Shown here in pieces: positions 5,811-20,962 of a stretch of DNA of 23,759 nucleotides. The notes beneath the pieces are model-generated. The model did not search any database. It had not been told where the DNA came from and saw nothing but the letters and a program-made list of their open reading frames with translations. How positions within the stretch are numbered: the first letter of the stretch is position 1; each line of letters begins with the position of its first letter. The DNA comes from an uncultured Candidatus Bathyarchaeia archaeon (lineage in GTDB: Archaea; Thermoproteota; Bathyarchaeia; Bathyarchaeales; Bathycorpusculaceae), in assembly GCA_964450845.1 (NCBI GenBank), contig CAYVGZ010000012.1, forward strand, positions 1 to 23,759. The letters are read 5' to 3'. The translations under genes were made by a program, and so were the position numbers.

Positions 5811-6243
5811 TTTGTTTTCCTCCCATTTTTAACGGGTTTGGTCCAAGCTTTTTTATTTGTTCAACCATGTCCCGTACGATTGTAGCGAATTTGTCTCCTT
5901 CGCTTGCGGAAACCCATTCAAGCCGCACACGCTCTGGTTCAATTCCGAAATCTTGTAGAACTTTCTTTAATAGAGTTATCCTTCTTAAAGCTTTGAAGTT
6001 TCCGCTAATGTAATGGCAGTCTGATGGCAGGTGACATCCAGCAATAAGCACTCCATCTGCACCATCCTTTAAAGCTTCGAGGACAAACGAGGGGTCAATT
6101 CTGCCGCTACACATGACGCTTATGATTCTAATGTTCGGTGGATACTGAATTCTGCTAACTCCAGCCAAGTCTGCGCCCGCGTAGCTACACCAGTTGCAGA
6201 GGAAACCAATAATTTTTGGTTCAAACCCGTTTTTCTCGGTCAT
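5803..6243 (-). CDS. mvhD: MvhD [2Fe-2S] hydrogenase-HdrA adaptor
   Basis: Canonical CNWCSYAGAD, VMCSGR, GCH...DCHY, EWVSASEG. ATGA overlap with hdrA. Confidence 0.95.
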   Translation of the reverse strand: MTEKNGFEPKIIGFLCNWCSYAGADLAGVSRIQYPPNIRIISVMCSGRIDPSFVLEALKDGADGVLIAGCHLPSDCHYISGNFKALRRITLLKKVLQDFGIEPERVRLEWVSASEGDKFATIVRDMVEQIKKLGPNPLKMGGKQNE

Positions 6244-9200
6244 GCTTGTACCTCCACAAGTGCGGCTTTAACTTGGGCGAGTATCTCTTCCGTGGTGAAG
6301 TGCCCCATTATGATAGCTTTTGTTGGGCATGCTGTGCCGCAGACTCCGCAGCCTTTGCATAGGGCTTCAATTACATGCGCAATGGGTTTCCCATCTTTTT
6401 CCTTCATTTCAATCGCACTATATGGACATAGATGTTCACAAATCTTACATCCGCTACATAAATCTTCGTTAACGTTTGCCACTATTCCTTCCATCTCAAG
6501 TGTGAGTTTTGAGAGTATAGTTGTTGCCCGTGAAGCTGCTGCACAGGCTTGAGCAATGCTTTCGTCTATGTATTTTGGCGAGTGAGCTATTCCGCAGAGG
6601 AAAACGCCCTCTGTTGCGAAATCTACTGGTCTAAGTTTCATGTGGGCTTCTAAGAAAAAGCCATCCTCTGTTAATGGCACTTTCAGCAGTTCTGCCACAC
6701 GTTTGTTGTCTGGATTTGGAATTGTAGCTACGCTTAAAACGACGAGGTCTGGCTCAATTTCAACTTCTTCGTTTACTACTGGTTCCCAGAAGGATAATTT
6801 GAGTTTTCCATCTTCGTTTACAACTTGCGGTTTTCTTTCATCGTCATAATTTATGAATAGAACCCCTTTTTGTGCAGCTTCACGGTAATAGTCTTCTTTA
6901 AAGCCATATGCTCGCATATCTTTGTACAAAATGTAGACTTCTGTTTTTGGACTCTTTTCTTTGATTTTCAGTGCGTTTTTTATTGCTTGTCCACAGCATA
7001 TTCTTGCACAGTTTGGTCGTTTTTCATTTCTTGCTCCGACACATTGAATCATAACAACGTTTTTTGCATTAAAACGGTCATTCGCGATTTTTTCTTCTAG
7101 CTCGCGTTGGGTTATTACTCTCGGGTCTTTGCCGTAGAGGTATTCCGTGGGCTTATATTCAACTGCGCCCGTTGCTACTATTACTATGCCATGTTCAACC
7201 TCTTTTTCATCATCTCGCTGCTTTATTTTTGATTTGAAGTTGCCAACAAAACCAGTGACATCGACGACTTCAGCTTCCAAGTGAACATGTATCTTGTCGT
7301 TCTCCATAACAGCTTTGGCTAGAGCGTTTAACTTTTGCTTTGGGTCTTCATTCTCCAACAAGTAATGAATCTTACGTAAATGTCCGCCTAACTCTTTTTC
7401 TTTTTCAACAAGATGAACTTCAAATCCTTGATTTGCAAGTTCTAGGGCTGCAGTCATGCCGGAGACACCACCGCCTATGATTAAGCCAACTGGTGTGACA
7501 TTTATCACAGGTTTTTTCAATGGTTTTAGAAGTTTGGCTTTTGCCACTACTGAGCGGATTAGGTCTTTGGCTTTTTCTGTTGCCTTTTCTGGCTCATGTA
7601 TGTGAACCCAACTGCATTGGTCTCGAATGTTTGCCATCTCGAATAAGTAGGGGTTCAGCCCAGCCTCTTGAACTGTTTCTCTAAACAGTGGCTCATGGGT
7701 TCGCGGGGTACATGAAGCAACAACAACACGGTTAAGATTGTTCTCTTGAATTTTCTCTTTAATTAATTTTTGTGTATCTTGCGAGCATGTGTAAAGGTTG
7801 GCTTCTGCATAAGCCACGTTGGGCAAGGTTCTAGCATACGCTACGACCTCTGGAACATTTACTACTCCGCCTATGTTTATTCCGCAGTGACATACAAAAA
7901 CACCTATGCGTGGCTCTTCTTGGCTTATGTCCCTTTCATGCGGGTACTCTTTAACAGTTACAAGTTTCCCTCTTTCAGTTGCAATTGTACCCATAGCTTT
8001 AGCTGCTGCGCCGCTTGCCTGTGCAACGCTTTCTGGAATATCCTTTGGGGCACTGAACGCACCGCACACGAATATGCCTGGTTTTGAGGTTTCCAATGGC
8101 GAAAAATATTTTGTTTCACAGAACTTGTATTTGTTCAGCTCTACCCCCAAAATTTTAGCTAGTTTCTCCACGTTTTTTGGTGGCTGCATTCCAATTGACA
8201 GAACAACCATGTCGAATTCTTCAGTTTTAGGCGTCTCATTCTCAACATAGTGAACAAAAAGATTGGCTGTTAACGGATTTTCAGTTACGCTTGCAACCCT
8301 TGACCTCACAAATCTTATTCCCCACTCGCCTTTAGCTCGATTATAGTAAGCGTCAAACTCTTTTCCGTAAGCCCGCAAATCCATGTAGAAAATTGTGGGT
8401 TCCAGCTTCGTAGGCGTGTGTTCTTTAGCGATTACCGCCTCTTTTATTCCATACATACAACATGCAGCAGAACAATAGTTATTTCCAAGCTGGAAATCCC
8501 TTGAACCTACGCATTGGATAAAGGCTATTTTCTTCGGAATTTCACCGTCTGAAGGTCTTAAGACAAGCCCGCCATAGGGTCCAGAGGCGCTTAGAATGCG
8601 TTCAAATTCTATGCTTGTTACAACATTAAGATAGCGTCCATAGCCATATTCGCTTTTCAATTTTGCATCGAAAGCTTCGAATCCTGGTGCTAGTATTATT
8701 GAGCCTACGTTTAATGTGGCTTCGCTGTCTTGTTGGTCGTATTCTATTGCTTTTGCCTTGCAGATTTCAAGGCACGTTCCGCATCCAATGCATTTTTCAC
8801 GATCAATTTTATACTTTAATGGTACTGCTTGGGGATAGTCCACGTAAATTGCGCTTCTTCGGCTTAACCCTTCATTATATACGTCTACGGCTTCGATTGG
8901 GCATTTTTGTGCGCATAAACCGCATCCGTTGCATTTGTCTTCGATTATGTAACGACTTCGTTTTCGAACTTTTACTTCGAAGTTTCCAGCTTCACCGTTT
9001 AAGCCAGTTATTTCAGCGTTGGTCAAAATTGAAATGTTCGGGTGTCTTCCAGTTGCTACAAGTTTAGGCGAAAGAATGCACATTGAACAGTCGTTTGTTG
9101 GAAATGTCTTGTCAAGCTGAGCCATCACTCCGCCGACACTTGCTCCCTGATCAATTAAGTACACTTTAAACCCAGAATCTGCCAAGTCTAAAGATGCTTG

Positions 9201-9257
9201 TATCCCAGCAACTCCTCCTCCGACTACAAGGACCGCACCAACTTTTTGCTCAGCCAT
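6240..9257 (-). CDS. hdrA: Large two-module HdrA (1005 aa): FAD module 1 with inserted ferredoxin, HdrA N-type Fe-S domain, FAD module 2, C-terminal 2x[4Fe-4S]
   Basis: GGGVAG and GGGVSG Rossmann motifs; PTNDCSMC; two QCVG(S/A)R...C..(I/A)CC...K motifs; internal VCHCG/CS/CTP/QCSWVH domain; C-terminal CSGCKICEHLCP and CKGCGVCGTACP. GGAGGT RBS at 9270-9265. Confidence 0.95.
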   Translation of the reverse strand: MAEQKVGAVLVVGGGVAGIQASLDLADSGFKVYLIDQGASVGGVMAQLDKTFPTNDCSMCILSPKLVATGRHPNISILTNAEITGLNGEAGNFEVKVRKRSRYIIEDKCNGCGLCAQKCPIEAVDVYNEGLSRRSAIYVDYPQAVPLKYKIDREKCIGCGTCLEICKAKAIEYDQQDSEATLNVGSIILAPGFEAFDAKLKSEYGYGRYLNVVTSIEFERILSASGPYGGLVLRPSDGEIPKKIAFIQCVGSRDFQLGNNYCSAACCMYGIKEAVIAKEHTPTKLEPTIFYMDLRAYGKEFDAYYNRAKGEWGIRFVRSRVASVTENPLTANLFVHYVENETPKTEEFDMVVLSIGMQPPKNVEKLAKILGVELNKYKFCETKYFSPLETSKPGIFVCGAFSAPKDIPESVAQASGAAAKAMGTIATERGKLVTVKEYPHERDISQEEPRIGVFVCHCGINIGGVVNVPEVVAYARTLPNVAYAEANLYTCSQDTQKLIKEKIQENNLNRVVVASCTPRTHEPLFRETVQEAGLNPYLFEMANIRDQCSWVHIHEPEKATEKAKDLIRSVVAKAKLLKPLKKPVINVTPVGLIIGGGVSGMTAALELANQGFEVHLVEKEKELGGHLRKIHYLLENEDPKQKLNALAKAVMENDKIHVHLEAEVVDVTGFVGNFKSKIKQRDDEKEVEHGIVIVATGAVEYKPTEYLYGKDPRVITQRELEEKIANDRFNAKNVVMIQCVGARNEKRPNCARICCGQAIKNALKIKEKSPKTEVYILYKDMRAYGFKEDYYREAAQKGVLFINYDDERKPQVVNEDGKLKLSFWEPVVNEEVEIEPDLVVLSVATIPNPDNKRVAELLKVPLTEDGFFLEAHMKLRPVDFATEGVFLCGIAHSPKYIDESIAQACAAASRATTILSKLTLEMEGIVANVNEDLCSGCKICEHLCPYSAIEMKEKDGKPIAHVIEALCKGCGVCGTACPTKAIIMGHFTTEEILAQVKAALVEVQA

Positions 9258-11867: not shown

Positions 11868-12458
11868 TTATTCGCGTAATCTGCCTTCTAATTTGCTTAC
11901 CCACTTATTGTAATCCCGGGCACCTAGCAAGTTCCCTAATTCCTGTTCCAAGACCAGAGAGTTATTGGGTTTGATCTCCACGATCCATCCTTCTTTATAT
12001 GGGTCTTCATTGATTATGCGAGGCTCATTCTTCAGTTTTTCGTTAACCTTGACTATTTTACCAGTGACTGGTGCGTATAGGTCGAACATGAACATCCATG
12101 TTTCAGCAACGCCGAAAGGCTCCATTTTGTTGATTTCTTTTCCAACAGGATCAGTCATTACGTGAGCTATACCTTTTAGGTGATTTTGCGCATAGTCTGA
12201 AACTCCGACGCGGATGTTTCCTTTAGGTGTTACTTGAGCCCAAGTGTGTTTAGGCGTATATAACATCAACTCTGGTGTCAGCAAAAGTTCTTTGCGCTTT
12301 TCTGCTGGGATTCCTTCAGCACGCATAAGGTCTTCCAAGCGCAGGCGGATGGCTTCGGAGACGAATTCTGATATGCTTCGGTAGCGACCAGTTCTAATGG
12401 CTTCTTCGATTTCTTTGATGAGTTCTTGTCTTATACTCACGGTTTTCCATTCAGACAT
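11868..12458 (-). CDS. Ribbon-helix-helix (CopG/Arc/MetJ-type) domain fused to a glycine-cleavage H-protein-like domain lacking the lipoyl-lysine
   Basis: N-terminus WKTVSIRQELIKEIEE...YRSISEFVSEAIR (RHH). C-terminus LYTPKHTW, RVGVSDYAQ, GVAETWMFMFDLYAPVTG, VNEKL, INEDPYKEGWI (GcvH). Strong RBS GGAGGGTGA. Confidence 0.85.
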   Translation of the reverse strand: MSEWKTVSIRQELIKEIEEAIRTGRYRSISEFVSEAIRLRLEDLMRAEGIPAEKRKELLLTPELMLYTPKHTWAQVTPKGNIRVGVSDYAQNHLKGIAHVMTDPVGKEINKMEPFGVAETWMFMFDLYAPVTGKIVKVNEKLKNEPRIINEDPYKEGWIVEIKPNNSLVLEQELGNLLGARDYNKWVSKLEGRLRE

Positions 12459-14691: not shown

Positions 14692-15567
14692 TTAGCCGAT
14701 TTTGTTTAGTACATTGTCCACTTTTATTTTGTGAAAATCAAGCACAAGCTCCTTCGAGTCTATTCCTAAGCCTAAGCTTAAAAGTTCCGAATAATGGAGA
14801 ACTGGCATATTGTAATCTTCGTGAAATGTTGACTTTATCAGCATCTGCCCCAAGTCTAGTGTTAAGAAACAGAAAGGGCAGAGAGTTGCTATACAGTCAG
14901 CGCCTGCTTTAGTGGTGTTCACGATTTTTTCACGGGCGATCGCCAATGCGACATCGTCAGCGTAACCCCTCAGAAGCCCTCCGCAACATTTCAACTTGTT
15001 TCGGTACCAAATGCTTTCTGCACCTAATGCCCCGATCAGATCGTCAAAGATGTGGGGACGCTCAGGGTCATCGAATTTGAGAAGTGTACTCGGTCTAAGC
15101 AGGTGACAGCCTGAAAACGATGCCACTTTCAGTTTGCCCAAATCTTTTGATACACTCTTCTTTAAGCGATCTAAGCCCACATCATTCATCAAGACTTGTA
15201 GGTAATGTTTCACTTCTTTGTTGCCCTTGAATTCTTTTCCAGCATTAGACAAAATTTGGTTCACTCTTGCCCGCAGTTTTTCATTTTCTTTCAACGTAGC
15301 ATTCGCCATAGCTAGAGACTCAAAACAGCCTGTGCATAATGTAACAATATTTAGGTCAGATTCTTCAGCCAGACAGATGTTGTATGCGGCAATGGATAAG
15401 CTTGTTTCCAAATCTATGGACTGCAACGGCGGTGGAGCGCAGCATGTCATGTTGTCTAGATCAACAAGCTCTATTCCCAGCTTAGCTAAAGCTTTCCTTG
15501 CAGACACTTCGTAGTGTGGCTGACGAGCTGGTATGGTGCAACCGAGAAATAGAGCATAACTTGTCAT
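14692..15567 (-). CDS. hdrB: Heterodisulfide reductase subunit B (copy 2)
   Basis: LGC, TCCA, CTGC, SGCH, KCCGG, CPFC: 10 Cys. ATGA overlap with hdrC2. Confidence 0.94.
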   Translation of the reverse strand: MTSYALFLGCTIPARQPHYEVSARKALAKLGIELVDLDNMTCCAPPPLQSIDLETSLSIAAYNICLAEESDLNIVTLCTGCFESLAMANATLKENEKLRARVNQILSNAGKEFKGNKEVKHYLQVLMNDVGLDRLKKSVSKDLGKLKVASFSGCHLLRPSTLLKFDDPERPHIFDDLIGALGAESIWYRNKLKCCGGLLRGYADDVALAIAREKIVNTTKAGADCIATLCPFCFLTLDLGQMLIKSTFHEDYNMPVLHYSELLSLGLGIDSKELVLDFHKIKVDNVLNKIG

Positions 15568-16079
15568 GATGCTTCTTCCTTCTTCTGCAACTCATCAAAC
15601 CCAGTGGCGGAAAGTATCTTTCTCAACCCATCTACGCCTGCTGGCTTAAGAGGCGGTAAACCCACTTCGGGTCTTTTCTTTTCCAAGAATTTAGAAATTG
15701 GGACTATGCGACCTTCACTCAACAATCCAGCTGCAAACTCTGAATAAATGTTTGGGATATTGCCTTCTTTGATGGCTATGTTTCTTAACGCGTAAATTAC
15801 ATCGGCTATTTCAACTTTTTGAGGGCATCGCTCTTGGCAGTTGTAGCATGAGCAGCAAAGCCATATTGCATCGCCAGAGAGAATCTCTTTCTTTTCTCCC
15901 CAAAGCGACAGTTTAATAACTTCTCTTGGATTGAACTTTTCTGTAATTTTAGCCACTGGACAGCTGCTGGCGCAGGTTCCACACTGGTAGCATAGAGTTA
16001 CAGTTTCACCGCCTAATCGACTCGTAATTTCCTTAGAAAACGCCAGGTCGTTGATGTTTTCTTCTTTTCTCTGCACCAT
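15564..16079 (-). CDS. hdrC: Heterodisulfide reductase subunit C (copy 2)
   Basis: CYQCGTCASSCP and IWLCCSCYNCQERCP. Confidence 0.94.
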   Translation of the reverse strand: MVQRKEENINDLAFSKEITSRLGGETVTLCYQCGTCASSCPVAKITEKFNPREVIKLSLWGEKKEILSGDAIWLCCSCYNCQERCPQKVEIADVIYALRNIAIKEGNIPNIYSEFAAGLLSEGRIVPISKFLEKKRPEVGLPPLKPAGVDGLRKILSATGFDELQKKEEAS

Positions 16080-16095: not shown

Positions 16096-18513
16096 TTAGG
16101 TTTTCATCAGCTGCAGTGGACCCAGCTTTTCTAATTTTTCAGTCATCATTTGAGCGGCTTCGGCAAACTTGTCTCCTTCAATGTACACCATATTGAACAT
16201 CTCCAACCGTTCTGGCTCTATGCCATATTCCTTCAGCAACGCTTTTGTAAGTTCCACTTTCTTTTCAGCCTTGTTGACGCCGACTTCGTAGTGGCAACCG
16301 TCACTCTTGCAGCCTACAACCATTACTCCTTGGGCGCCAGCTTCGAACGCTTTTAGAAACTGGTTGATTTGCAATAAGCCCGTGCATGGAACCTTCATAA
16401 CTCTAACGTTAGCAGGGTACTGCATCTTGGCCATGCCTGAAGAGTCCACGGCTGTGCCTCCGCATTCTGAACAGCAGACAGCAAGAACCAAGGGTTTTGA
16501 TGTTCCATTTATGGACATAAGAGCCGTCATTTGAGCTTGCATCTGTTCTGGCCTATAATGCCGAAGTTCGATAGCGTTGACGGGACAAGTTCCTACGCAA
16601 ATGCCGCAGCCTTCACATAGGAGATCGGATATCCTCGCAACAAAATGCTCTTCATCCTTAGGCTCCAAACTTATGGCTCCGTAAGGACACGTGACAGGAC
16701 AGAATTCGCAGTCGCCGCAATATTCTTCATTAACCACGGCAGTTCTCTGATCTTTGACTATCTTGCCCGTGTTCAAGAACTTGGCAGTCTTCACAGCCGC
16801 TGAATGAGCATGAAGCGAAGTCGTCGGTGCATCTTTCGGGAATGTGGCGCCTCCACAGAGAAACACTCCTCTAAGCTTGGTCTCCGTGGGTCTTAACTTG
16901 GCATTGTACTCTTTAAAGAAGCCATCTTCATCTAACTCGATACCGAGAATTTCGGCTAGTTCCTTAGTTCCTTCAGCTGGCACCATGGCTGGCGCAAGCA
17001 CCACTAAGTCAGCTTCTAACTCGAGGAATTTTCTCGAAATTTGATCCTCAACATCGACGATTAGCAAGTTGACTTCTGGGTCATGCACGATTTCGGTTGG
17101 TCTACCTTTTACGAATTTTATTCCCATCTCTCTGGCTTTTTCATAATAGTACTCATGCTCTCTTCCTGTGGTTCTTACATCTATGTAACATATAGTGACG
17201 TCTGCATCGGGATAGGCTGATTTAATTAACATTGCATGTTTTAGCGAAATCATGCAACAAATGCCTGAGCACCAAGGATTCCATCGTCTATCGCGCGAAC
17301 CGACACATTGAATCATAACGATTCTTTTAGCAGGCTTTCGATCTGAAGGTCTAATAATCTCACCAGCAGTGGGGCCAAAGCCATCGATCATTCTTGCAAA
17401 TTCGAGATTAGTTATGATGTCTGGATACTCGCCATAGTGATACTCCTTTATCACGCTGGGGTCGTATTCTTGGAAGCCAGTAGCAACTATTATGCTGCCT
17501 ACGTTAAGTGTTGTTTTCTTACTTTTCTGGTTTAATTCAATGGCTTTGGTTGGGCAAACTTCAACGCATTTGGCGCAATCTTGAAATTTGCATACACTAT
17601 CGTCAATGACGTAGACTGGCGGATAAACGTTAGGAATGTTCATGTAAATAGCCTTGCGAGTTTTCAGCTTCGCATTGTATTCATCTGGCACTTCCACGGG
17701 ACAAACAGTTGTGCAAAGATCACAGCCAACGCATTTCAGTTCATTGACGTATCGTGGTTTCTTCTCTACTGTGACCTTATAGTTTCCAGGAACCCCCTCA
17801 ACGCCAACGATTTTGGAATTGGTCAGTATATTTAAGTTAGAAATCTCTGTGAATCCTGAACGGTACACGCACTTTCTGGAGGTGTGAGTTATCGTTTTGA
17901 CATCTGAAGCTGGAGACTGTATACAAATGGCGCAGTCATCAGTAGGGAAGAATCGACCTGCGCGAGCAGCCAAGCCTCCGAGAAAAGGCGCTTTTTCAAC
18001 CAGATGCACTTTGAATCCTAAATCCGCCAAATCTTCAGCTGCCTGCATTCCAGCTATACCTCCGCCTATCACTAGGACAGATTTCAAAGCTGGAAATTCG
18101 AGTTTCTCTATGGGCTCAAGAAGCTTTGCGCGTTCGATAGCAGCTAAAAGCATGGCTTTGGCTTTTTCAGTAGCTTCCGACGGCGTGTCTCGATGAGGCC
18201 ATGCACAGTGATCTTTAAGGTCTAAGACCGTCACTAAATATGGATTGAGCCCTGCATTTTCAACTGCTTGAACGATTTTCACTTCGCTTAGCTTTGGAAG
18301 ACTTTCTGCAACGACGACCCTGCTTAGCTTTCCATTCTTAATGGCATCTACGATGGTCTGTAGTCCTGGGTCTCGCCAAAACTCGCTGCCTCTTGCAACA
18401 AAAGCCACACCAGAAACTTTTTTCACGTAGCTTGTTAAGGCATCAAAGTCCAAGATTTCAGAAAGCTGTTTTCCGCAATCAGATAGAAATACTCCAACTT
18501 TAACTTCTTCCAT
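16096..18513 (-). CDS. hdrA: HdrA::MvhD fusion (805 aa) with degenerate N-terminal Fe-S domain
   Basis: GGGIAG, PTDDCAIC, inserted ferredoxin, QCVGSRD...CSGICCMISLK, C-terminal ferredoxin, then MvhD-like CCSEC, VPCTG, GCKSDGCHY, ERLEM. RBS GGTGAGGGG. Confidence 0.93.
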   Translation of the reverse strand: MEEVKVGVFLSDCGKQLSEILDFDALTSYVKKVSGVAFVARGSEFWRDPGLQTIVDAIKNGKLSRVVVAESLPKLSEVKIVQAVENAGLNPYLVTVLDLKDHCAWPHRDTPSEATEKAKAMLLAAIERAKLLEPIEKLEFPALKSVLVIGGGIAGMQAAEDLADLGFKVHLVEKAPFLGGLAARAGRFFPTDDCAICIQSPASDVKTITHTSRKCVYRSGFTEISNLNILTNSKIVGVEGVPGNYKVTVEKKPRYVNELKCVGCDLCTTVCPVEVPDEYNAKLKTRKAIYMNIPNVYPPVYVIDDSVCKFQDCAKCVEVCPTKAIELNQKSKKTTLNVGSIIVATGFQEYDPSVIKEYHYGEYPDIITNLEFARMIDGFGPTAGEIIRPSDRKPAKRIVMIQCVGSRDRRWNPWCSGICCMISLKHAMLIKSAYPDADVTICYIDVRTTGREHEYYYEKAREMGIKFVKGRPTEIVHDPEVNLLIVDVEDQISRKFLELEADLVVLAPAMVPAEGTKELAEILGIELDEDGFFKEYNAKLRPTETKLRGVFLCGGATFPKDAPTTSLHAHSAAVKTAKFLNTGKIVKDQRTAVVNEEYCGDCEFCPVTCPYGAISLEPKDEEHFVARISDLLCEGCGICVGTCPVNAIELRHYRPEQMQAQMTALMSINGTSKPLVLAVCCSECGGTAVDSSGMAKMQYPANVRVMKVPCTGLLQINQFLKAFEAGAQGVMVVGCKSDGCHYEVGVNKAEKKVELTKALLKEYGIEPERLEMFNMVYIEGDKFAEAAQMMTEKLEKLGPLQLMKT

Positions 18514-18523
18514 GTTTAACCCC

Positions 18524-19981
18524 TCACCTTCTCAACTTCTTTACAAGTTGCCTTTCGCTGTCGTAAATCTCCACTTCTAAAGGCATTTCCCCAATAGCAA
18601 AGTGAGTAGCACAAGCAAAGCATGGATCATAAGCCCTAAAAGCCATCTCCACCATGTTCAATATTCCATCACTGACTTTACCGTTGTGTATAAGGCCTTT
18701 TGCAGCATTTTTCACCGACATACAAATGCCAGGAGCGTTATGAGTTGTAGCTACTATAAGGTTAACTTTTTTGGCTAAGGCTTTCTCATCAAGTATATAA
18801 TGGTGAATTAAAGTGCCCCTAGCAGCCTCGACTATTCCAATTCCTTCACCAGGTTTTCCAGGTTTGTTTTTTATGTCTTTTCTAGTTATTTCTGGGTCTG
18901 TTATCAATTCTAGTGCCCGTTCAGTTGCGTACATTAATTCTATAAGCCGCGCCCAGTGGAAAGCTAAAGTGGCGTGGACTGGTTTTCCACCTAAAGTTTT
19001 ATACATTCTTGTGTATTCTTCTTGTGCTATGGGCGTTGCCATGCCTTCTGCAGCGTTAAGTCTTCCTAGCGGGCCTACCCTGTAAATGCCGCTGTCAACT
19101 CCATCAACCAAGCCTTTCCAACCAACCTTTTTGAGGTAGGTCAACTTGACGTAGGTCCATGGTTCAACATGCTCTTCGATAACATCCAAATATTCTTTAG
19201 GAGCAAACTTCAAAAACTCCTTTCCTTCGGGGTTTACCACTCGCACATTGCCGTCGTAGAAGTTCACTTTATTGTTTTTGTCAACTGTTCCCATGTAATA
19301 GGTTTTCAGAGCGTAAGGCTCGCTTTTAATCAAGTTTACGTAGTCAACGTTTTTGAGAACCACATCGCCGAAGAGTTTCAGAGAGAACTTGGCGAAATCG
19401 ACACAACTTCTAACCATTTTCTCGATTTCTTGCCTATCTTCCTCAGACAACGCCTTTGCAATTCCGCCAGGAATACATGCACTTACAGGATGAGTCGGTC
19501 TCCCTCCAAGTATGCCTGTTATCTTCTGCCCATAAGCCCTATGTTTTATTACTTCCTTGCCAATTTCTAAACCAGCCTTTTCTATCACTCCAAGCACGTT
19601 TCTTTTCGCTGGCGGAGCATCTGGTCCTACGACAAAGTCGGGACCGCCCAAAAAGTAGAAGTGAAGTATATGGTCATAGATAAAGTAGCCACAATACATT
19701 AGTTCTCTAAGTTTTTTAGCGGTTTCTGTAGGTTCTACGTTGAATGCCGCGTCTAAAGCCTTTGCTCCTGCCATGTGATGTGCAACTGGGCATACGCCGC
19801 AGATTCTAGTGGTTATTATAGGCAGGTCTTCGGCTCTTCTTCCTTCGCAGAACTTTTCGAACCCTCTGAGTTCAGGAACTTGAAGGTAAGCGTTTTCAAC
19901 ATTTCCCTCATCATTCAAGAATATTGTTATTTTTCCATGCCCTTCAAGCCTTGTGATTGGGTCTATGATTACTTCTTTCAT
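18524..19981 (-). CDS. mvhA: Group 3c [NiFe]-hydrogenase large subunit MvhA (copy 2)
   Basis: TRLEGH, RICGVCP, EAARG, DPCFACATH plus tail. Colinear with copy 1. Confidence 0.95.
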   Translation of the reverse strand: MKEVIIDPITRLEGHGKITIFLNDEGNVENAYLQVPELRGFEKFCEGRRAEDLPIITTRICGVCPVAHHMAGAKALDAAFNVEPTETAKKLRELMYCGYFIYDHILHFYFLGGPDFVVGPDAPPAKRNVLGVIEKAGLEIGKEVIKHRAYGQKITGILGGRPTHPVSACIPGGIAKALSEEDRQEIEKMVRSCVDFAKFSLKLFGDVVLKNVDYVNLIKSEPYALKTYYMGTVDKNNKVNFYDGNVRVVNPEGKEFLKFAPKEYLDVIEEHVEPWTYVKLTYLKKVGWKGLVDGVDSGIYRVGPLGRLNAAEGMATPIAQEEYTRMYKTLGGKPVHATLAFHWARLIELMYATERALELITDPEITRKDIKNKPGKPGEGIGIVEAARGTLIHHYILDEKALAKKVNLIVATTHNAPGICMSVKNAAKGLIHNGKVSDGILNMVEMAFRAYDPCFACATHFAIGEMPLEVEIYDSERQLVKKLRR

Positions 19982-20919
19982 TTCATCACTTTCCTCCGCA
20001 AAATGGAATTGGCAAGAGAATACTTATAGAAAGTTCCTACTGGATCAACAACCTGTTCGATGACGCTTGAATCAGTAGCAATAGAAGCAAGCGCACTTAC
20101 AATGGCAGCGCCTTGATCAGCCACGCGAGGACCTGGTCCGTCGCAGCCAGTGCAAGGTATGTTTACTTTTGGACATTGTGCACCGCAGCCTGCTCGTGTT
20201 GCAGGACCCATGCAAATTACTCCTTGATCCCAGAAACATGTTTCAAAGTCGTCTTCAATTTCGTAAATTCTCTTTATTTCAGAAAGCTTTCGATCTTTTT
20301 TCTTTCTTGGGCATTCGTCGCAGATTGACTTGTTTGGTAGGAAGCTTGATCCTTTAGGAGGCAACTTGTTGTTTATGATAGCTTCGAAGGCTTGGATTAT
20401 GCTTGGAATCGGTGGTGGACAGCCTGAGAGAAAATAGTCCACGTCTACAGTTTGAGCTAAGGTTTTTACTGTGTCGTAAAATTCAGGCAATTCAAGTTCT
20501 CCTTCTTCGACTTTAACAGAGGTTTTAGGGGTTACTTGTTCAGAGTTTTTAGTTGAAGGAGTTTCAAAGTAGGCTCGTTCAAAAATTGTTTTTTTGTTCC
20601 AGAGATTTGCTAGCCCTTTAACGCATCCATCACAGGCGCAGGATCCGAAGGCTACGAGAATTTTTGATTTTGCCCTCAGAAGTCTAGCCATGTGCTCGTT
20701 TTCTGAGGTTCTTATGGCTCCGTTGAAGAAGCAGGCGTCTATGCTTTTGTCGGGCATGTCTTCAACGTCTTTGTATTTGATGTCGATGGCTACTGGCCAG
20801 AAGACTATGTCCGCTTTTGCTACAATGTCTAGGATTTTTTCGTTTATGTCTAAAACTGCTATTTCGCAGCCGCCGCAACTAGCTGCCCAGTAGAAGGCTA
20901 ATTTCAGCTTTTCTGTCAT
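19978..20919 (-). CDS. mvhG: Group 3c [NiFe]-hydrogenase small subunit MvhG (copy 2)
   Basis: SCGGCE, GSCACDGC, SGCPP, CDECP, CMGPATRAGC..QC, PCTGC. ATG 20919 preferred; the ORF is open to 20934. Confidence 0.95.
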   Translation of the reverse strand: MTEKLKLAFYWAASCGGCEIAVLDINEKILDIVAKADIVFWPVAIDIKYKDVEDMPDKSIDACFFNGAIRTSENEHMARLLRAKSKILVAFGSCACDGCVKGLANLWNKKTIFERAYFETPSTKNSEQVTPKTSVKVEEGELELPEFYDTVKTLAQTVDVDYFLSGCPPPIPSIIQAFEAIINNKLPPKGSSFLPNKSICDECPRKKKDRKLSEIKRIYEIEDDFETCFWDQGVICMGPATRAGCGAQCPKVNIPCTGCDGPGPRVADQGAAIVSALASIATDSSVIEQVVDPVGTFYKYSLANSILRRKVMK

Positions 20920-20962
20920 CAGCCTCATCCTCAAATTATAGAAAACTCAATAAACTAGGAAA

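Follow-up and report, generated by a model that had tools for sequence, protein, structure and literature searches.

The window analysed here, that is, the whole 23,759-nucleotide stretch at positions 1 to 23,759 of contig CAYVGZ010000012.1 (assembly GCA_964450845.1), comes from an uncultured Candidatus Bathyarchaeia archaeon and carries two Hdr-hydrogenase gene sets, operons A and B, both on the minus strand. Operon B, whose hdrA::mvhD fusion gene is the subject of this study, opens with an mvhG-like gene for a [NiFe]-hydrogenase small subunit (19978..20934, minus strand; 318 amino acids (aa); Pfam Oxidored_q6; product 62% identical to the operon A copy). It continues on the same strand with an mvhA-like large-subunit gene (18524..19981; 485 aa; Pfam NiFeSe_Hases; NCBIfam VhuA, 429 bits), the fusion itself (16096..18513; 805 aa; type Ia and HdrA2-like according to open reading frame (ORF) translation, NCBIfam, fold and alignment), hdrC (15564..16079; 171 aa; identified by Pfam Fer4_8, a Cys pattern of two 4-Cys motifs and conserved synteny) and hdrB (14692..15567; 291 aa; two Pfam CCG domains; TIGR03288, 330 bits). 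The MvhA of operon B has two intact metal-site motifs (RICGVCPVAH and DPCFACATH) plus a C-terminal tail, and its HdrB has Cys42/43, 78/81, 194/195 and 230/233; intact NiFe motifs and two CCG motifs are found in both copies of MvhA and HdrB, respectively, that the window encodes.

Homologues carry the names Candidatus Bathyarchaeota or Bathyarchaeia. Orthologues of the fusion (at least 75% identity) were found in about 22 of the 301 sampled Bathyarchaeia genomes, all from one order, and the order mvhG-mvhA-hdrA::mvhD-hdrC-hdrB, with a single hdrA, recurred in 12/12 genome loci fetched and in three metagenome loci, mvhG lying upstream of mvhA-hdrA without exception. MvhA (with its NiFe motifs), MvhG, HdrC and HdrB (with its two CCG domains) all adjoin hdrA::mvhD. 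The predicted complex is certainly one of type Ia Hdr linked to Mvh, and its design is unusual. The best explanation of the gene content is that operon B would encode a self-contained soluble [NiFe]-hydrogenase/heterodisulfide-reductase complex, of a design specific to one Bathyarchaeia order.

The fusion is shown by alignment to keep the predicted sites for most cofactors of a canonical HdrA: the fold that binds flavin adenine dinucleotide (FAD), Lys409, the HA4 cluster, the Cys pair, both ferredoxin domains and the [2Fe-2S] site of MvhD (residues 356, 360, 409 and 410 are numbered throughout as in 5odc_A, the solved HdrA of M. thermolithotrophicus, with which the fusion shares 40% identity by phmmer). 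The best NCBIfam model is hetero_SS_HdrA2 (NF040770), with 781 bits, under the curated cut-off of 1100; a paralogue from the same genome (on contig C24) reaches 1082 bits against this model. An AlphaFold2 (AF2) model of the fusion (predicted local distance difference test score, pLDDT, 88) superposes in Foldseek on the HdrA core of 8rvu with a template modelling (TM) score of 0.96 and 1.9 Å root-mean-square deviation. The thioredoxin reductase (TrxR)-like FAD-binding fold with its GxGxxG motif is recognised at residues 145-187 by Pfam Pyr_redox_2, FAD_oxidored and NAD_binding_8. Conservation was assessed over 120 homologue clusters (at least 82% identity). In all 120, the HA4 ligands (CVGSRD ... 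CSxxCC; Cys403, 415, 419 and 420) are invariant, as are the Cys194-x-x-Cys197 pair (17923..17934, minus strand), whose counterparts are Cys197 in M. thermolithotrophicus and Cys202/205 in M. marburgensis, and the eight cysteines (Cys261, 264, 267, 271, 308, 313, 316 and 320) of the inserted ferredoxin domain (17524..17751, minus strand; 2x[4Fe-4S], HA5/HA6), the predicted ferredoxin port. The same is true of the eight cysteines (599-643) of the C-terminal ferredoxin domain (16519..16746, minus strand; 2x[4Fe-4S]; Pfam Fer4_7), and of Cys681, 684, 710, 735 and 740 in the fused [2Fe-2S] MvhD domain (16099..16500, minus strand; Pfam FlpD, E 6e-38, residues 676-798), which aligns over its full length with solved MvhD/VhuD chains. 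Within this domain, at 16297-16314 (minus strand), the fusion reads Cys735-Lys-Ser-Asp-Gly-Cys740: His68 and Asp71 of M. marburgensis MvhD, which are in contact with the unexplained ligand at HdrA's Cys pair, are replaced by Lys736 and Gly739, Asp738 being off by one.

The N-terminal MvhD-like domain (residues 1-130; 18124..18513, minus strand), in contrast, lacks the ligands of its [4Fe-4S] cluster, HA3. In canonical enzymes this cluster is held by N-domain cysteines together with Cys197 of the partner HdrA, en route to the inserted ferredoxin domain (PMC9012536), and current cryo-electron microscopy (cryo-EM) models make it the low-potential 'shuttle cluster' (PMC13580544, PMC12350162, PMC13518236). 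We place HA3 in the N-terminal domain, following PMC13518236 and PMC9012536; one legend in PMC12350162 puts it at the HdrA C terminus. In alignments to 5odc_A and 9sfi_A, Ser11, Cys13, Trp46 and Ser71 of the fusion fall on the ligand positions (Cys11, Cys13, Cys46 and Cys72 of 5odc_A), with three of the four cysteines replaced and the Cys13 equivalent alone left. The codons agree: Ser11 (TCT), Asp12, Cys13 (TGC) and Gly14 spell SDCG in place of CHCG, Trp46 is TGG (18376-18378) and Ser71 is AGT (18301-18303). The sequence-only reading had reported these substitutions and called the protein rewired, a word that is fair given that the lost cluster is the proposed shuttle. Position 46 is Trp in 118/120 homologues and position 11 is Ser or Ala in 120/120, and positions 13 and 71 drift freely, position 13 being non-Cys in 24/120. 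The domain is the least conserved of the clade (81% identity) and is still predicted to fold confidently (AF2 pLDDT 83-96). The alignments show that, with these ligands, canonical HA3 binding would no longer be possible.

The second departure lies in the flavin pocket. In characterised enzymes Lys409 touches N5 of the flavin and is kept in place by Glu356 (PMC12054007, PMC9430772, PMC6405883), which is the only role assigned to Glu356 (PMC12054007), and the E356/K409 pair has been used to separate bifurcating from non-bifurcating HdrA flavins (PMC12054007, PMC9430772), in line with the sequence-only reading, which placed the two residues beside the bifurcating FAD of methanogen HdrA. The Glu356 marker is missing from the fusion and the Lys409 marker is present. 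The phmmer alignment to 5odc_A is free of gaps over query residues 312-410 and places Ala373 (GCA, 17395-17397, in LEFARM) on Glu356 and Lys425 (AAA, 17239-17241) on Lys409, which, with the codons and the fold match (TM 0.96), confirms the equivalences proposed earlier. Misalignment of Ala373 is ruled out by the ungapped alignment and the matching predicted fold, and a sequencing error, an assembly artefact or a pseudogene by the fixation of the substitutions in 120 homologue clusters and 22/301 sampled genomes. Ala373 shares its segment (17383..17397, minus strand) with Asp377, equivalent to residue 360 (i+4), and Lys425 is followed by His426, equivalent to residue 410 (17236..17241, minus strand for both). 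Ala373 is found in 119/120 homologues, Lys425 and Asp377 in 120/120 each. The pocket of operon B reads Ala373/Asp377/His426, against Glu/Ser-or-Asn/Asn in characterised enzymes. AF2 predicts a helix over residues 369-376, and because residue 377 lies one helix turn past 373 in the model, a relocated carboxylate at Asp377 is plausible.

None of the characterised bifurcating HdrAs was found to share these changes. Glu356 and the four N-terminal cysteines are present in all five solved methanogen HdrAs, and the 120 best Methanosarcinales HdrA2 orthologues, from the lineage of the sole biochemically characterised HdrA::MvhD fusion, have Glu356, Asn360, Lys409 and Asn410 in 120/120 cases and four N-terminal cysteines in every full-length sequence (Methanothrix, Methanolobus and Methanococcoides orthologues stood in for the M. 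acetivorans sequence). Of the two grounds for refutation that the sequence-only reading had named, a failed equivalence of Ala373 to Glu356 and the same substitutions in characterised bifurcating HdrAs, neither applies. The substitution of Glu356 by Ala is not peculiar to operon B. Of the 28 single-module HdrAs and HdrA::MvhD proteins that represent clusters at 50% identity, 17 have Ala or Ser at position 356, and these belong to Asgard archaea, Methanoperedenaceae, Methanobacterium, Schekmanbacteria and Thermodesulfobacteriota. The change is of the Ala type in 45 of 113 metagenome HdrA ORFs, a mixed and biased survey collected with generic patterns aimed at the insertion subfamily described below; in the same biased sample, all 11 MvhA-linked HdrA ORFs have Ala or Ser. 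The literature already lists variation among HdrAs in the clusters they contain and in E356/K409, Glu356 being missing in 21.7% of 401 HdrA representatives from methane-metabolising archaea (PMC12054007, PMC9430772, PMC6405883).

Ala/Ser356 usually comes with Asp360 and His410: His410 accompanies it in 43/47 cases, as compared with 8/68 with other residues at 356, and Asp360 in 28/47. As far as the distribution goes, the Ala/Asp/His set is shown to be inherited from a large subfamily that spans archaea and bacteria, and Ala at 356 looks like an alternative pocket rather than a lesion. The hydrogenotrophic methanogens Methanobacterium sp. MBAC-LM and M. oryzae DSM 11106 (loci L035, L042 and L057-L060) each encode a canonical HdrA of about 650 aa plus a 791-aa HdrA::MvhD fusion with Ala356, His410 and every N-terminal Cys, which NCBI names as the HdrA equivalog of Methanobacteria. 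As proof of a bifurcating Ala356 HdrA this fusion is not decisive, the canonical HdrA being encoded alongside it in both organisms.

Directly after the Cys pair, the fusion carries a subfamily-specific insertion (residues 198-221; 17851..17922, minus strand) with the motif R-K-Cys215-x-Y-R-S. The insertion is 14-15 residues long, has no counterpart in solved HdrAs and is common to a subfamily found in archaea and bacteria. Within the clade, no other segment of the protein is as conserved as this insertion (97% identity), and yet AF2 models it with a pLDDT below 50. Cys215 might form, with Cys194/Cys197 and Cys103 or Cys442, a relocated metal cluster or a redox-active di- or trithiol replacing HA3. 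This explanation, which overlaps the three-port reading developed below, would account for the conservation of the insertion, for the retention of Cys103, 194, 197, 215 and 442 in 120/120 homologues each, and for the unexplained ligand density seen by cryo-EM at the equivalent Cys pair (PMC13580544, PMC13518236). The insertion and Cys215 are, however, also found in relatives that have all four N-terminal cysteines, and Cys215 is replaced by Gly in the sister clade P0122, itself with partial ligand loss. We consider such a substitute for HA3 at this place to be quite improbable.

The evolutionary history of the two changes is different. The nearest relative of the fusion is P0122 (62% identity; all others are at 45% or less), a type present in three additional Bathyarchaeia genomes. 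In the tree, the query's clade groups with that of P0122 with full support; the pair is nested in the Ala/Ser356 group that shares the 14-15-residue insertion, and the sister of this pair, Hodarchaeales included, retains all four N-terminal cysteines. The Glu to Ala change is therefore old and widespread and the loss of HA3 derived; going by the sequences available, this loss is recent and confined to a Bathyarchaeial clade, always in the mvhG-mvhA-hdrA::mvhD-hdrC-hdrB setting. Other Mvh-linked lineages have tandem hdrA genes, of which one copy likewise shows degenerate N-terminal ligands, and the loss of HA3 therefore seems to recur in hydrogenase-linked Ala-type HdrAs. In one of them, represented by metagenome loci L071, L086, L107 and L111, two adjacent hdrA genes follow mvhA, one copy having degenerate ligands (DFNG, EFNG or SWPC) and the other intact ones, an arrangement that suggests heterodimeric HdrA pairs.

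Could the operon B protein likewise be half of a bifurcating unit, another HdrA paralogue supplying an HA3-bearing N-domain in trans? An obligate heterodimer of this kind has been proposed for the tandem or fused HdrAs of anaerobic methanotrophic (ANME) archaea, in which the N-domain and Cys197 are lost in a complementary manner (PMC9012536). The degenerate and intact hdrA genes paired at the MvhAG-linked loci L071, L086 and L107 speak for it, and so do the HdrA paralogues of the genome, of which there are at least six. Operon B has, however, a single hdrA at 15/15 clade loci, Cys194 and Cys197 are retained, so that there is no complementary loss, and adjacency to operon A is confined to one family. 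A partner in trans thus appears improbable to us.

Operon A itself consists, in order, of genes for a GltD/NfnB-like flavoprotein, an MvhD-like protein, a 115-aa ORF and a tandem (type II) HdrA of 1005 aa (6240-9257, minus strand), followed by mvhD, hdrC, hdrB, mvhG, mvhA and hycI. The tandem HdrA does have SIEFERI and the canonical CHCG, TCS and SCTP cysteines, as the sequence-only reading had noted when it contrasted the two proteins. Its first module contains FAD, the inserted ferredoxin domain and EFER, without an N-terminal domain; the second begins with the canonical CHCG/TCS/SCTP N-domain, continues with a TrxR part that has no inserted ferredoxin domain and ends with a C-terminal ferredoxin domain. 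The idea of the sequence-only reading that the organism switches between operon B and an operon A presumed to bifurcate is weak: orthologues of the operon A HdrA occur in at least eight genomes without an operon B orthologue and the two operons are adjacent only in the window's own family, hence their pairing is not obligate. Another gene of the window (11868-12458, minus strand) fuses a ribbon-helix-helix (RHH) domain to a GcvH-like domain with Met at the lipoyl-lysine position (ETWMF vs ESVKA), and is syntenic with Hdr operons in related genomes.

The genome (1.64 Mb, 93% complete) has the subunit CdhC of carbon monoxide dehydrogenase/acetyl-CoA synthase (CODH/ACS) and three NiFe large subunits; at this completeness, McrA was not found. 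All its HdrA paralogues except that of operon B (at least five) have the canonical Glu356 and N-terminal cysteines. The paralogues on contigs C24, C45, C6/C16 and C29 include three further HdrA::MvhD fusions, and a 1127-aa paralogue (type III) has a GltD-like insert within its inserted ferredoxin domain.

How might such an enzyme work? MvhAG would oxidise H2, and the electrons would pass from the tethered MvhD cluster over the Cys pair to the FAD. One branch would then lead over HA4 and HdrC to the noncubane clusters of HdrB, where a disulfide would be reduced, probably not the heterodisulfide of coenzymes M and B (CoM-S-S-CoB), since McrA was not found. The inserted ferredoxin domain would stay a third port, which would make the complex a bifurcating (or confurcating) H2:disulfide/ferredoxin oxidoreductase. 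Deprived of HA3, the low-potential electron may be carried to HA5/HA6 by the MvhD cluster, which sits on the same mobile arm, or by the Cys194/197/215 loop, and Asp377 and His426 may replace Glu356 in holding Lys425 at the flavin N5. We thus propose, tentatively and with a probability of about 0.45, that operon B encodes a three-port H2:disulfide/ferredoxin enzyme in which the low-potential branch has been rerouted. We favour this reading because the ferredoxin port is strictly conserved and the Ala pocket is widespread and internally consistent: the HA4, HA5, HA6, C-terminal and MvhD ligands and Lys425 are invariant while the HA3 positions drift, which fits with selection on a working ferredoxin port.

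Several points weigh against this proposal. All HdrAs with demonstrated bifurcation retain Glu356 together with an intact HA3 site, and in the current mechanism HA3 is essential for carrying the low-potential electron to HA5' (PMC13580544, PMC12350162). The Ala356-type HdrAs are so far without a biochemically characterised member. A tree test for co-evolution of Ala356 with His410 and Asp360 was not significant, the association being largely inherited and only four well-supported independent contrasts being available, and the co-evolution of the three residues is therefore not statistically shown. The AF2 model gives no cofactor geometry, the insertion being modelled with the low confidence mentioned above, and conservation of HA5 and HA6 would fit equally well with a simple ferredoxin input port.

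The main rival, which ranks next after the three-port reading, is a non-bifurcating H2:disulfide oxidoreductase, in which the FAD sends both electrons downhill via HA4 and HdrBC and the ferredoxin domains serve as wiring or as an input for reduced ferredoxin. This was the interpretation offered by the sequence-only reading, and it is consistent with the loss of both hallmarks of characterised bifurcating HdrAs: Glu356, which together with K409 separates bifurcating from non-bifurcating flavins in the literature (PMC9430772, PMC12054007), and HA3, the proposed low-potential shuttle (PMC13580544). In addition, the canonical Glu/Cys paralogues, at least five in number, could perform bifurcation elsewhere in the cell. 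It does not follow, however, from the two losses, as the domain of the ferredoxin port and all other cofactor ligands are invariant: Lys425 and each of the eight cysteines in the inserted ferredoxin domain are strictly kept, whereas the non-bifurcating 6tjr (349 aa) is devoid of ferredoxin domains. Moreover, the Ala pocket is common to a very large subfamily that includes the second Methanobacterium HdrA, which argues for a working alternative rather than for decay, and wasting the full H2-to-disulfide energy drop would be odd for an energy-limited anaerobe. We regard the non-bifurcating enzyme as possible but doubtful. Our preference for a three-port enzyme should not be confused with a stronger claim, namely that the clade is a natural HdrABC-hydrogenase that bifurcates without HA3 and Glu356 by means of the tethered MvhD [2Fe-2S] cluster and/or a Cys194/Cys197/Cys215 relay combined with the Ala/Asp/His pocket; in this complete form we hold it to be unlikely.

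If it were nevertheless true, HA3 and Glu356 would not be mechanistic requirements of Hdr-type flavin-based bifurcation, and the sequence markers in use for bifurcating HdrAs would put a large part of the environmental HdrAs into the wrong class. Among the non-methanogen HdrAs sampled here (biased samples), the Glu356 marker fails in about 40-60%, and marker-based calls need care; this concerns metabolic models, whether of Bathyarchaeia or of other uncultured anaerobes, which routinely assume that every Mvh-Hdr cluster makes reduced ferredoxin from H2. For the electron path from MvhD over the flavin to the ferredoxin port, recent cryo-EM work invokes a swinging arm, an HA3 shuttle and a ligand of unexplained nature at the Cys pair (the role of this pair in canonical enzymes is discussed in PMC9012536 and PMC13580544). 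A hydrogenase-linked lineage with a single hdrA, devoid of HA3 and with a strictly conserved ferredoxin port, is a ready-made knockout and should be a natural test of the HA3-shuttle model.

A known system close to operon B, with an identical subunit set and domain order, is MvhAGD-HdrABC of hydrogenotrophic methanogens (M. thermolithotrophicus 5ODC; M. marburgensis 8RVU/9SW2; M. maripaludis 9SFI). The two have in common the FAD-site Lys, HA4, the Cys pair, both ferredoxin domains, the MvhD [2Fe-2S] cluster, the HdrB CCG domains and the MvhA NiFe motifs. In operon B, however, MvhD is fused to HdrA, Glu356 is replaced by Ala, the +4 position is Asp and the residue following the Lys is His, HA3 lacks three of its four cysteines, the 14-15-aa insertion follows Cys197 and the second motif of the inserted ferredoxin domain has gained a 2-aa insertion; the methanogen enzymes also differ in their host, the disulfide of an organism in which McrA was not found being probably other than CoM-S-S-CoB. 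HdrA2B2C2 of Methanosarcina acetivorans, a type Ia, F420H2-dependent and bifurcating enzyme (PMC5296606), resembles operon B in that an HdrA::MvhD fusion (about 790-805 aa) precedes genes of the hdrBC type, and its HdrA2 model (NF040770) scores best with our fusion, but the Methanosarcinales HdrA2 genes are not linked to mvhAG. A further related system is Mvh:Hdl of Archaeoglobus, by its description in PMC3949148, which cites Mander et al. 2004: a soluble MvhAG-type hydrogenase with HdrABC-like subunits in a non-methanogen, in that account presumed, though not proven, to bifurcate, its disulfide substrate not being known. At the other end stands sHdrA of Hyphomicrobium denitrificans (6TJR), the reference non-bifurcating protein, composed of a TrxR-like FAD core and one [4Fe-4S] cluster (Foldseek TMt 0.90, 25% identity). 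With 349 aa it has no N-terminal, ferredoxin or MvhD domains, and 6tjr_A covers residues 331-576 of the fusion only: far from this minimal sHdrA-like architecture, the operon B protein keeps all of these domains.

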